This document shows positions 3,367 through 16,549 of a DNA stretch of 64,000 nt, one piece after another (the stretch's first letter is position 1; the number at the start of each line of letters is the position of its first letter). Location: positions 32,657 through 96,656 of the IMG/VR virus record IMGVR_UViG_3300043172_000501; one strand, 5' to 3'. The DNA comes from a virus. The translations under genes were made by a program, and so were the position numbers. Below the pieces are notes generated by a model. It searched no databases. It was given only the letters and a program-made list of their open reading frames with translations, and was not told where the DNA came from.

Positions 3367-3390
3367 CAAAATACTATCTCTCTACTCACA

Positions 3391-3444
3391 CCTGTCCAGC
3401 ATCTTATTTCTTGAAATGAACCATATATACCTTTATAATAAAGG
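3391..3444 (+). promoter_or_regulatory. Sigma70-like promoter with palindromic operator over the -10 box (copy 1)
   Basis: CCTGTCCAG (3391), TTGAAA 3411-3416, 17-nt spacer, TATAAT 3434-3439 inside palindrome CCTTTAT-A-ATAAAGG 3430-3444. Confidence 0.8.
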
Positions 3445-3488
3445 GACAGATAAGACACACTATCACTAGGGCTTAGAGGTTTGAATCT

Positions 3489-4220
3489 ATGACAAAGAAA
3501 CAGTATTTAATAAATGAAGAAACTTTCCAAGAGTGGGAAATAAACACAAGAAAACTCCGCACACTAATTAGTTGCATGTTAGTTGCAATTCCACAATTAA
3601 GAATAAAATTCAAAGATGAAGTTAAAATCTGGAAGATAACGCCTAGAATAAACAGGAAATCACACACCACGTTTCGCAATACAATTTATTATTCTAGTAG
3701 ACAACGTGCCATAGAAAATCAAGATTTATTCTTTAAGGTTTTATGTCATGAGTTCATACATCTACTGCAAAGAAAAGCGTTTGGGGGTTTCTTCCATTTC
3801 ATTCGCTACACAGATCCTCAAGTAACATCAATGATAGTACCAGCTATATTTGGAACAGCGATGATAGTAGGAGGAGACACAGTAACTGGGTTACTATTTT
3901 ACGGCTTAACATTATTTCTTATAGCGCCATGGCAATCCCAGTCAAGAGCAGAGATGGAGTGCGAAGCTTATACTATGAATCTAGCTATTGAACAGTGGAA
4001 GTATGGAGAAATAAGACAAAAGAAGAAAGACGAAGTAATTAAGAGTCTAACGAGCCCACTGTATTACTTTATGATATGGAATAAATCCACTGCAGAAAAA
4101 TTAGTAGATAAAATGGTAGAATCAGTTCAAGACTGTCAAAAAAATAAACCTGATTGTTTTAAAATATCAAAAGCTTTTAATATCGTATTCAATATTATAG
4201 AAGAAGAAAAAAATAAGTGA
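3489..4220 (+). CDS. Putative membrane-associated zincin metallopeptidase
   Basis: HEFIH (HExxH), hydrophobic hairpin, downstream EMECEAY glutamate motif. Confidence 0.6.
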   Translation: MTKKQYLINEETFQEWEINTRKLRTLISCMLVAIPQLRIKFKDEVKIWKITPRINRKSHTTFRNTIYYSSRQRAIENQDLFFKVLCHEFIHLLQRKAFGGFFHFIRYTDPQVTSMIVPAIFGTAMIVGGDTVTGLLFYGLTLFLIAPWQSQSRAEMECEAYTMNLAIEQWKYGEIRQKKKDEVIKSLTSPLYYFMIWNKSTAEKLVDKMVESVQDCQKNKPDCFKISKAFNIVFNIIEEEKNK

Positions 4221-4271: not shown

Positions 4272-4796
4272 ATGCTAATGTCATCTGAAGCGAAAGTAAT
4301 CTTAATAGGAAACTTAGGAAAAGATCCTGAAATGAAAACAACACAAAATGGAACTGCAAAATGCAATTTCAGTGTGGCAACAAGTCGCAAATGGAAATCT
4401 AAAGACGGAACACCACAAGAAAAAACCCTATGGCACAGAGTTATCGTCTGGGGAAAACAGGCAGAAAATTGTGCGAAATATTTATCCAAAGGTAGCAAGG
4501 TCTATATTGATGGTGAGATGGACCAACTGAACTGGGAAGACAAGAAAACAGGCGAACAAAAGTCGATGCAAGAAATAATCGGACATCGTGTCGTTTTTCT
4601 CTCAACAAAAAGAGAGAGCCAAGGGCAAAACCAGAACAACAACCAGCAGAATAACCAACAGAATAACCAACAGAACAACCAGAAGCATAGCAAGAATCTC
4701 CCGCAAAATAATTCTGGCAACCAAGGCACCTACCAAGGAAACGACGACCGAGGAGGCGGACAAGACTTTGGTAACGATGATGATATTCCGTTTTAA
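4272..4796 (+). CDS. ssb: Single-stranded DNA-binding protein
   Basis: KVILIGNLGKDPE, WHRVIVWGKQAE, KGSKVYIDG, acidic C-terminal tip DDDIPF. Confidence 0.97.
   Translation: MLMSSEAKVILIGNLGKDPEMKTTQNGTAKCNFSVATSRKWKSKDGTPQEKTLWHRVIVWGKQAENCAKYLSKGSKVYIDGEMDQLNWEDKKTGEQKSMQEIIGHRVVFLSTKRESQGQNQNNNQQNNQQNNQQNNQKHSKNLPQNNSGNQGTYQGNDDRGGGQDFGNDDDIPF
4629..4683 (+). repeat. 12-nt coding tandem repeat (NNQQ) in SSB linker
   Basis: CAGAATAACCAA-type units repeated about four times. Confidence 0.8.
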
Positions 4797-14464: not shown

Positions 14465-14877
14465 AGAAATAAAAGAAAAATGGGCATATAGTGACGACGG
14501 GGAATTATTCAGCAATCAGTGTGACTCAAAAGAAGAAGCGATAGAAGAGTTAAAAGCTGAAGATTACGAACATGGTTATGTGGCGAGAGTTGTAGGAATA
14601 AGTCGTGAAGACCTAATTGATAATTCATTGGACATCAATTCACTATTTGAAAACATGCAAGAACAGCTTTACGATATTGCAGGAGAAGCTGCCGAGTGTT
14701 TCGATTATTCCCCGTGTTGGAACAGAGAAAAAAGAACAGAAGCAGAAAACAAGCTACAAGCAGACCTGACAAAACTAATCTATGAATTTATGAAAGAACA
14801 AGAAATAGAACTAAACTGTTACAGGGTTGCAGACGTTGAACCAGTAGACATGGGTGAGGTAACTGATGGTAACTAAA
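14444..14877 (+). repeat. 22-nt direct repeat GAGGTAACTGATGGYAACTAAA flanking gene 14454-14876
   Basis: Copies at 14444-14465 and 14856-14877 with one mismatch. Confidence 0.85.
14454..14876 (+). CDS. Hypothetical acidic protein
   Basis: WAYSDDGE.F...DSKEEAI phage motif; ends EVTDGN. Confidence 0.65.
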   Translation: MATKEIKEKWAYSDDGELFSNQCDSKEEAIEELKAEDYEHGYVARVVGISREDLIDNSLDINSLFENMQEQLYDIAGEAAECFDYSPCWNREKRTEAENKLQADLTKLIYEFMKEQEIELNCYRVADVEPVDMGEVTDGN

Positions 14878-15579
14878 AAGAAATCAGTATCAAAAAAGAA
14901 GCCCAAGAAACGTGGCGCACCATCCAGACCAACAGGAAGAGCCCCAGCAAATAAGACAATTGCTCCTGCTACTGATAAGATATTCAAAGAGAAAGTTGCT
15001 AAAGAAAAGAAGAAGGAAGAAAATCGCAAGGCGAAAGGTTTAGGTCCTACAAAAGAGATCCCGGGCATGATCTCAATAGAGAAGTACAATGCGATGTATC
15101 AAGCATATACTGAACGGCAATCCATAAGCCATGTAGCGAAAGTGTGCTCAGTCAACGCGACTACAGCAAAGAAGTATGTTGAGAAAGGCGACCCCAAGAG
15201 AAACCTGCGACCGTTGAAAGACCGATACTCATCAGTGATAGTGAATGCTCAACAAAAACAAGACTATACACTCGCAACATTAAGAGGAGAAGTTCTTGCA
15301 GCATCCCGTGTATTCCTCCACAGGGTCGCCATGAGAATCAAAACACTTGACCCTGATGACTTGAGCCCCGACGCAATCGGGAAGCATTTAAAGGACATTC
15401 AGGTGACAGCAGAGAGATGCTTAGGAGTATCTGATGCTACGATAACCGTCAAACAAGAGAGTAGATATGCTGATTGGTCAGAGGAAGAATTACTTAATTT
15501 CTTTAAAACCGGCGTTACACCTGAACATGACAGGTCAGTGGCTCCTATCTCATCGGCTCAGATGTCATCGAAGGAGTAG
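14866..15579 (+). CDS. Probable terminase small subunit (HTH protein)
   Basis: Basic N-terminus, HTH (SISHVAKVCSVNATTAKKY), helical core, C-terminal YADWSEEELL motif. Confidence 0.5.
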   Translation: MVTKKKSVSKKKPKKRGAPSRPTGRAPANKTIAPATDKIFKEKVAKEKKKEENRKAKGLGPTKEIPGMISIEKYNAMYQAYTERQSISHVAKVCSVNATTAKKYVEKGDPKRNLRPLKDRYSSVIVNAQQKQDYTLATLRGEVLAASRVFLHRVAMRIKTLDPDDLSPDAIGKHLKDIQVTAERCLGVSDATITVKQESRYADWSEEELLNFFKTGVTPEHDRSVAPISSAQMSSKE

Positions 15580-15581
15580 AT

Positions 15582-15869
15582 ATGATTAAGATATATTGCG
15601 ATGTAGAAAAAGGAAAAGGATTATCAATACTCAAGAAGCTTGAAGAAGCCAGTGCAGTAAAAACAACTAATGGTTACATGCCGACGAGCCTTACAGTGGC
15701 TTCATACATGACAAGTATTTGCTTTGAAGATAGGGCAGACGGTTTTGGTTCTAGAATGGGCTGGGCAGATCATGACAGTAAATATTTTAAACAGAATAAA
15801 TATACGAAGGTTACACCAGAAGAGCTGGCTACCATTGCATCAATTGCTTGTCCGGTCACTAAAACCTAA
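15582..15869 (+). CDS. Hypothetical protein
   Basis: AAGGAG RBS. Confidence 0.6.
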   Translation: MIKIYCDVEKGKGLSILKKLEEASAVKTTNGYMPTSLTVASYMTSICFEDRADGFGSRMGWADHDSKYFKQNKYTKVTPEELATIASIACPVTKT

Positions 15870-15932
15870 CCGTTACCTAAACCGTTTACTTTTTAAAGGG
15901 TAATAAAAAAACAAACCGTTACCCTAACCGTT
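15868..15932 (+). repeat. Four AACCGTT iteron-like repeats in two pairs
   Basis: Starts at 15868, 15880, 15914, 15926 (12-nt spacing within each pair), separated by T/A tracts. Confidence 0.8.
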
Positions 15933-15953
15933 AAAACTAATTCCCTAATCAGT

Positions 15954-16007
15954 CCTGTCCAGAAACAAATTACTTGAATTAAACCCTACTAGCCTTTATA
16001 ATAAAGG
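15954..16007 (+). promoter_or_regulatory. Sigma70-like promoter with palindromic operator over the -10 box (copy 2)
   Basis: CCTGTCCAG (15954), TTGAAT 15974-15979, 17-nt spacer, TATAAT 15997-16002 inside CCTTTATAATAAAGG 15993-16007. Confidence 0.8.
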
Positions 16008-16056
16008 TAGAGATTAGATACAGATTAGAACAGACCATTAACCAAAGGAGTACATT

Positions 16057-16077
16057 ATGTACAGATTGACCACCTAA
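16057..16077 (+). other. Minigene MYRLTT with strong RBS
   Basis: AAAGGAG ends 6 nt before ATG TAC AGA TTG ACC ACC TAA. Confidence 0.5.
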
Positions 16078-16120
16078 AGCGGTTTGGTAACTAGTGAGGG
16101 TTCAATTCCTTCACCGCTTA
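16077..16120 (+). ncRNA. tRNA-like top-half element (acceptor stem plus T arm, no anticodon arm)
   Basis: AAGCGGT/ACCGCTT 7-bp stem; GAGGG-TTCAATT-CCTTC T arm; 12-nt linker containing TGGTA. Confidence 0.6.
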
Positions 16121-16174: not shown

Positions 16175-16549
16175 ATGATTATGGGGAGTAAGAAAATAGA
16201 GAAAACGAAATATTATCCATTCGATAACGAGAAGCACTTAGTCGACTGTCGTTATATGGAAGTCAAAACTAATTCCGACGCACTAATGAAGACTATGGCT
16301 AAGTGGCATCCTCTTGCAAAAGACAGAGGCTATGGCTCATGTGGCTGTTGCAAACGATGGAAAAGGCCGATGATTAGCCAGTTAATTCGGTGTAACAAGT
16401 GCCCCATTGTGATAATTGAAAACGGTATCAGATCAACATGCCACGACAGTGTACACCCATATCAAATATGGATTAGAATAGTAGAAAAAGAGAACGAATG
16501 CGAAGACAAGATATTTAACCTAGCTCTAACCGCCTGGGAGAAATTATAA
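16175..16549 (+). CDS. Hypothetical Cys-rich protein
   Basis: CGCC, CNKCP. Confidence 0.6.
   Translation: MIMGSKKIEKTKYYPFDNEKHLVDCRYMEVKTNSDALMKTMAKWHPLAKDRGYGSCGCCKRWKRPMISQLIRCNKCPIVIIENGIRSTCHDSVHPYQIWIRIVEKENECEDKIFNLALTAWEKL

Follow-up and report, generated by a model that had tools for sequence, protein, structure and literature searches.

A conserved 44-nt tRNA-like RNA element in phages, predicted to be a processing signal or mimic

The coaxial stack of acceptor stem and T stem, together with the T loop, is the part of a tRNA that is recognised by RNase P, RNase Z and the CCA-adding enzyme. In animal mitochondria, tRNA signals abut the coding regions, and stop codons either overlap these signals or are completed at the cut. 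In the case of mascRNA and MEN-beta, which derive from MALAT1 and NEAT1, the upstream RNA obtains its 3' end from RNase P cleavage, and a small RNA is set free through RNase Z and CCA addition. The t-elements of plant mitochondria adopt a non-canonical tRNA-like fold with the motif GGTTCRANYCC; their ends are mRNA termini made by RNase P and RNase Z, the released RNAs carry a non-encoded C or CA, and some cleavage sites are located within reading frames (Forner et al. 2007, PMC1920247). The 44-nt phage element described here is, as judged by sequence comparison, a real and conserved RNA element with a predicted function, and is assigned to the known kind 'tRNA-like processing signal or mimic'.

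The window, i.e. the whole stretch of 64,000 nt that was analysed, comprises bases 32657-96656 of a 96,656-bp IMG/VR virus record. The record carries a 127-bp terminal repeat, has a GC content of 39.5% with all genes on the + strand, and encodes large terminase, portal, tail sheath and tape measure proteins, indicating a 96.6-kb tailed-phage genome. A cultured close relative was not found, and the nearest large terminase (TerL) sequences in viral and metagenome collections were 67-69% identical. Searches with blastn and tblastn, using the locus and the downstream gene against 50,697 phage records, gave zero matches.

The promoter, repeats, Shine-Dalgarno sequence, minigene and fold that a first-pass annotation had listed were all found in their places on the + strand, correct to the base. 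A putative sigma-70-type promoter (copy 2, 15974..16002) consists of a -35 element TTGAAT (15974-15979), a 17-nt spacer and a -10 element TATAAT (15997-16002), and scored 10/12 in the consensus scan; transcription is expected to start near 16009-16010, approximately 67 nt before the 44-nt element. This promoter lies in a 90-nt block (15933-16022), a second copy of which, 74% identical, is located at 3370-3459. The latter (promoter copy 1) shows the same layout of CCTGTCCAG, TTGAA and a TATAAT within a palindrome, followed by a similar initial transcribed sequence, and leads straight into the ORF 3489-4220, with neither a minigene nor a tRNA-like element. Just 5' of the -35 element of copy 2, the sequence AACCGTT(A/T)(C/A) occurs four times (window 15868-15934; starts at 15868, 15880, 15914 and 15926), and these copies may be binding sites of a regulator.

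Repeats of the AGATTAGA type are found at 16011-16029. The Shine-Dalgarno sequence AAAGGAG (16044..16050), as read from the sequence, lies 6 nt 5' of the ATG of the minigene and would be used by ribosomes. The minigene (16057..16077) has six codons and a stop, ATG TAC AGA TTG ACC ACC TAA, encoding MYRLTT, and the last A of its TAA (16075-16077) is at the same time position 1 of the tRNA-like fold. A small hairpin, GUACA-UUA-UGUAC (window 16050-16062), encloses the AUG of the minigene and could modulate initiation in the leader. The first gene after the element in the ORF list (16175..16549) starts 54 nt 3' of it and encodes a Cys-rich orphan protein of 124 aa. For this protein zero Pfam matches were obtained, the sole match among 5.8 billion proteins was the protein itself, and no homologue was found in IMG/VR.

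The fold at 16077-16120 can be written AAGCGGT / TTGGTAACTAGT / GAGGG-TTCAATT-CCTTC / ACCGCTT / A. The 5' strand of the acceptor stem, AAGCGGT (16077..16083), forms 7/7 pairs with 16113-16119, and the 3' strand ACCGCUU is followed by an unpaired discriminator, A16120 (A73), the two together occupying 16113..16120. A CCA is not encoded, as TTG (UUG in the RNA) comes directly after A16120. The T arm (16096..16112) has the stem GAGGG/CCUUC with one G.U pair and the loop UUCAAUU, and bears the GGTTCRANYCC motif as GGTTCAATTCC at 16099-16109; the acceptor stem closes the fold. The D arm and the anticodon arm with its anticodon are missing. They are replaced by the 12-nt linker UUGGUAACUAGU (16084..16095), which was aligned by the family model R3 (see below) to the consensus UUGGAACAUGG and agrees in its UUGG-AAC with the conserved linker motif of the family. 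The GG of the linker is a possible analogue of G18/G19 and would dock on the T loop. The isolated 44-mer folded with a minimum free energy (MFE) of -12.9 kcal/mol (z = -2.4). In the MFE fold of a 182-nt context, the T hairpin alone was kept and the acceptor stem was missing. Thermodynamic support is weak by itself, and the significance of the element therefore rests on comparative evidence.

The Rfam tRNA model (RF00005) aligned exactly to 16077-16120 with model positions 10-45, i.e. the D and anticodon arms, deleted. Its score of 20.9 bits was under the gathering score of 29, and with an E value of 0.0037 over the 96.6-kb genome this was the single tRNA-like match there. The element has the 7-bp acceptor stem and the T arm with UUCRANY loop of a tRNA, and ARAGORN reported no tRNA or tmRNA gene at this site, also when introns were allowed. 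These results agree with the original reading of the element as the top half of a tRNA, and a tRNA proper was ruled out by the missing D and anticodon arms, the sub-threshold RF00005 score and the negative ARAGORN search. A tmRNA was likewise ruled out, as the ARAGORN tmRNA search was negative and the pair 3:70 is G-C instead of G.U.

IMG/VR was scanned with the pattern TAA-N6-TTGG-N10-GGTTCRANTCC and with an N11 version of it, stem complementarity not being imposed, and the same counts were made as a control with the 3' strand slid 9-21 nt downstream. The N10 scan yielded at least 120 stretches (80 loci among the matches listed) and the N11 scan 31 stretches. At least six of the seven acceptor pairs were formed in 23/49 unique N10 matches among those listed, compared with 4/245 in the control, and in 8/26 unique N11 matches, compared with 1/130, so that the paired fraction was approximately 30-50% in the scans and 1-2% in the controls. 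The three T-stem pairs that are free of the pattern were all formed in 35/49 of the unique N10 matches among those listed and in 16/26 of the unique N11 matches. By these counts, the element family is beyond chance.

The 31 unique full members could be aligned without difficulty (alignment A5). Ten of the 12 pairs varied on both sides, and this variety of pair types is, like the enrichment over the control, free of the circularity that affects the percentage paired in members selected for pairing. Compensatory changes in homologues, by which the first-pass annotation had proposed to check the fold, are thus present in the family. The linker UUGGAAC and the loop UUCGAUU were conserved, the shared A1, UUGG and T-loop positions being partly by design as the scan pattern was derived from the window element. 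Pair 7:66 was mostly mismatched. Most members showed an A(-1):U73 pair, and A(-1) was conserved even in copies where it is not part of a stop codon.

A covariance model (R3) was built from alignment A5, whose members had been gathered by a pattern derived from the window element; the window element itself and its counterpart in a related phage (G004a, described below) were both left out. R3 scored 31.9 bits on the window element, with E values of 1.5e-5 in 741 kb and 1.9e-6 in its own genome, where it is a single copy, and 41.3 bits on G004a. It aligned the linker UUGG-AAC in the window element, of which the fishing pattern had specified UUGG only. Ordinary tRNAs were passed over by the model: tRNA-rich jumbo-phage records with about 100 first-look candidates each gave only one or two matches. 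In 151 Bacteroidota and four other genomes, no matches were obtained among the 42-150 candidates scored per genome.

The window element fits the family layout, which comprises an acceptor stem of 6-7 bp, an 11-12-nt linker starting UUGG(A/U)..C, and a T stem of 5 bp with a UUCRAUU loop. It also agrees with the family in its placement, i.e. in sense orientation in a short gap between co-directional genes and at a stop codon, with an upstream ORF of just six codons. It departs from the consensus in having A73 instead of U73 and no A(-1):U73 pair, a paired U7-A66, one additional linker base and a UUCAAUU loop, and it is also atypical in being promoter-proximal and in having a minigene. A73 is shared by a variant group consisting of the window element, G004a and the copies in L246 and L261. 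The first-pass annotation had proposed to look for a linked minigene in phage genomes; none of the other family members contained one comparable to MYRLTT, and the role of the minigene is for this reason uncertain.

With at least 120 matches in IMG/VR to one narrow pattern, the family is widespread in phages, and it is absent from Rfam 15 and from the literature searched. Six canonical copies matched no Rfam 15 family, and no description of such elements in phages was found in that literature. Unnamed tRNA-like candidates from IMG/VR were listed by Fremin et al. (2023; PMC10690425) and might include the present family. As the family escapes both the tRNA finders and Rfam 15, it is missed by phage annotation.

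All 31 unique members occupy short gaps and have the same orientation as the flanking genes. In 27 of them the distance from the end of the upstream ORF to the element was 0-13 nt, and in 14 the TAA truly terminates an ORF of 60 aa or more. The next start codon was mostly found 13-60 nt beyond the element, in many cases preceded by an AT-rich leader with no Shine-Dalgarno sequence. In the largest subfamily (L195:2151-3427; also L194, L199, L201, L224, L258, L260 and L264), the major head protein gene (phrog_10) precedes the element by 10-13 nt, and a conserved gene of approximately 92 aa with no Shine-Dalgarno sequence follows it at a distance of about 20 nt. Structures that stabilise or attenuate an mRNA are usually situated at this position. 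In another subfamily the element follows a gene of the lipoprotein family encoding 307 aa. Most records contained one copy. A complete 52.9-kb phage showed six copies within 2.7 kb (L317:505-3217 = G051:22304-25016), each after a small ORF; four of these copies have one common acceptor stem, and their T stems differ by compensatory changes. Stop-codon overlap was observed in three of the six.

Searches with the TerL and sheath proteins revealed a clade of uncultured relatives with TerL 52-69% identical and GC contents from 55% to 66%. Synteny with two of them (G003 and G005) was good overall and the small-gene region around the element was variable. A relative of 98 kb with 64% GC and a TerL 52% identical (G004) carries the second mini element, G004a, which reads ACCGCGG / TTGGAGCTGGG / CCGGG-TTCGAAT-CCCGG / ACGCGGT / A. 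It has the layout of the window element, with an 11-nt linker starting UUGG, A1-U72 and A73, and its first base is also the last base of the TAA that ends an 89-aa ORF, at a site that is non-syntenic with that of the window element. In a structure-guided alignment of the two elements 23/24 cells paired, and 6/12 pairs differed by compensatory changes. Directly 3' of G004a a boxA-like sequence, GGTTCTTTGACAA, was observed (L144:8175-8187; region G004:28175-28500). After it comes a gene-free stretch of approximately 310 nt, closed by a perfect 13-bp helix of GAGACTGAGCAGC (L144:8191-8203) with GCTGCTCAGTCTC (L144:8488-8500).

The tRNA-derived elements of this clade form a graded series from true tRNAs to aberrant full-size tRNA-likes. 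True tRNAs were present in L313 (L313:5450-5775) and in L330, the latter also showing an aberrant copy alongside (approximately 4313-4390). A tRNA-like element of 117 nt (G005:7244-7360; L148) directly follows the homologue of the window ORF 14866-15579 and shares with the window element the acceptor core GCGG/CCGC and A73. It contains a 47-nt insertion at the variable-arm position, and ARAGORN, with introns allowed, read it as tRNA-Pro(cgg) with a 35-nt intron. In the syntenic slot after the 237-aa gene, a tRNA-like element was found in G005 only, and none in L313-L316. An 85-nt acceptor/T-arm element with an aberrant middle (G004b, G004:40035-40119; L145:35-119) was left out of the argument; it may lie within an ORF in frame with a downstream ATG. 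The mini elements may descend from tRNA genes. A model built from two sequences (R2) recovered from 50 related records its own training copy and two weak matches within real tRNA arrays of distant phages, indicating that the element is rare within its own clade.

The reading preferred here, which is held with middling confidence, is that the 44-nt element is a cis-acting RNA in the early transcript and serves as a processing signal for RNase P and RNase Z. Every enzymatic step in it is a prediction. The 12-bp stack of acceptor and T stems with its canonical T loop, possibly capped by the linker GG, would be the recognition unit for the bacterial enzymes RNase P and RNase Z and for the CCA-adding enzyme. 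The RNase P site is predicted between A16076 and A16077, and cleavage there would detach the leader of approximately 67 nt with Shine-Dalgarno sequence and minigene, and also any upstream read-through RNA. A cut by RNase Z after A16120 is proposed because no CCA follows. The expected products are a tRNA-like RNA of 44 nt (47 nt with CCA) and an mRNA whose 5' end is fixed 54 nt ahead of the first gene; with RNase P acting alone, the downstream mRNA would instead have a flush stem capping its 5' end. The acceptor stem would be melted by ribosomes that terminate at the UAA of the minigene, and leader translation and processing should therefore compete. The placement of the family at gene borders, in co-directional gaps and after the head protein gene, fits this reading and suggests a role in forming or protecting transcript ends; as it fits such a role in cis, processing is favoured. 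Against processing stand the mostly single copy per genome, unlike the needs of a general punctuation system, the position of the window element at the head of the transcript, and the absence of the acceptor stem from the 182-nt MFE fold. Bacterial RNase P prefers U at N(-1), and the window element has A at this position.

The main rival of the processing reading is a decoy acting in trans, which is regarded as doubtful. A released minihelix of 44-47 nt with a CCA tail would then be a sponge for proteins that bind the top half of tRNAs (defence nucleases cutting the acceptor or CCA, tRNA-modifying or tRNA-repair enzymes). The promoter that the window element has of its own, about 67 nt upstream, would suit such an RNA, as would the single copy in most genomes, which is expected of a gene rather than of punctuation, and retention of an elbow-like shape is suggested by the conservation of linker and T loop. 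Defences that read exactly these parts exist, since the defence nuclease Cas12a3 recognises acceptor stem, T arm and CCA (PMC12851939). However, neither the tight packing on stop and start codons nor the site after the capsid gene is needed in trans, the element encodes no CCA, and no phage-encoded CCA-adding enzyme or RNA ligase was found in the genome. Lacking the anticodon arm, the minihelix would also give no protection from the commoner anticodon nucleases. It seems improbable that the element is instead a dead relic, left when deletions removed the D and anticodon arms from a phage tRNA gene. The same early region of relatives contains true tRNAs as well as aberrant full-size tRNA-likes, among them the 117-nt element with its common acceptor core and discriminator after the homologous ORF, all of which could reflect such an origin. 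A relic is nevertheless difficult to reconcile with 12/12 intact pairs and an intact T loop, with a linker that agrees in its length and its UUGG-AAC with an independent family comprising 31 or more sequences whose stems covary, and with the recurrence of the same layout in G004a at a non-syntenic site; judging by the layout of canonical tRNAs, UUGG could have come to follow position 7 directly only by two or more separate deletions.

Little probability is given to a ribosome-linked regulator in which termination of the minigene inside the fold would set expression or stability of the downstream mRNA, with the tRNA-processing enzymes uninvolved. The perfect Shine-Dalgarno sequence with optimal spacing, the six-codon ORF and its stop overlapping position 1 are in line with this, and the translation coupling proposed in the first-pass annotation is weakly supported in so far as the one-base stop overlap recurs in G004a, in 14/31 unique members and in 3/6 copies of the array. 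It did not extend to the rest of the family, where the minigene is absent and A(-1) is kept even outside stop codons. Moreover, 98 nt separate the minigene stop from the next start codon, which is too great a distance for coupling, the fold is not followed by a U-tract terminator, and a T loop specific for tRNAs would be superfluous in a simple roadblock hairpin. Phage attP sites often contain tRNA 3' halves. In view of this and of the modest thermodynamic support, a site acting at the DNA level, i.e. an attP core copied from a host tRNA gene, or else a chance match, was also considered; it is largely refuted and very improbable. When the 19-nt string of T loop and 3' acceptor strand was searched in 185,579 species genomes (one each), 53 exact matches were obtained, all of them chance matches in coding sequence and none in a tRNA, and the exact 22-mer of T arm and acceptor was absent from IMG/VR. 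The 3' half is accordingly not a copy of a host tRNA, as the first-pass annotation had required of an RNA element, and an attP core was ruled out by the lack of an exact host-tRNA 3' match together with the absence of a tyrosine integrase (PF00589) from the genome. The 5' acceptor strand would be unneeded in an attP core, the G.U pairs and the strict sense orientation point to RNA, and the family model recovered the element with an E value of approximately 2e-6.

A more far-reaching form of the processing reading, considered rather unlikely, is that phages of several host groups practise tRNA punctuation, with anticodon-less mini-tRNAs on or next to stop codons recruiting the RNase P and RNase Z of the host for the cleavage of polycistronic mRNAs. 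In the window the cut would fall within the UAA of the minigene, translation and processing would compete, and a stop-less 'UA' end would result, as in mitochondria; the released minihelix with its CCA tail could also soak up defence nucleases that recognise acceptor and T arm. Provided that RNase P and RNase Z do cleave the elements, phages would use the host tRNA maturation to set transcript ends, to stabilise capsid messages and to separate cistrons. Such expression control is known from organelles and from MALAT1, and none was described for bacterial viruses in the literature searched. The element is a candidate for a short, portable RNA-processing tag and, in addition, a candidate decoy for a growing list of tRNA-targeting defences.

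The phage element shares with tRNAs (RF00005) an acceptor stem of 7 bp, a T stem of 5 bp with a UUCRAUU loop, and an unpaired discriminator, but it has no D arm, anticodon arm or anticodon and cannot decode. Acceptor and T arm together with a D-loop analogue that has no D stem are also found in the tRNA-like domain of tmRNA, whereas the mRNA-like domain, tag ORF and pseudoknot of tmRNA are missing from the phage element and its 3:70 pair is G-C, not the G.U pair of alanine identity. With the punctuation of animal mitochondria it has in common a tRNA-shaped signal that adjoins coding regions and overlaps stop codons; there, however, functional tRNAs punctuate a whole genome, while the phage mimics are anticodon-less and mostly occur once per genome. 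Like mascRNA and MEN-beta (RF01684), it is a tRNA-like fold inside a longer transcript, and mascRNA was the best Rfam match of G004a, although the score of 21.2 bits, compared with a gathering threshold of 42.5, indicates a likeness in shape only, and mascRNA is an element of eukaryotic nuclear lncRNAs that keeps an anticodon-like arm. The t-elements resemble it in being non-decoding folds with a GGTTCRANYCC T arm and an acceptor stem, located within mRNA precursors at gene borders, and their cuts inside reading frames parallel the stop-codon overlap of the phage element. The latter is much smaller (43-44 nt), has neither D nor anticodon arm, contains the conserved UUGGAAC linker and belongs to phages, not to an organelle. 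The phage element is not a member of the t-elements; most likely it 'works like' them or like mascRNA, as a signal in cis for RNase P and RNase Z.
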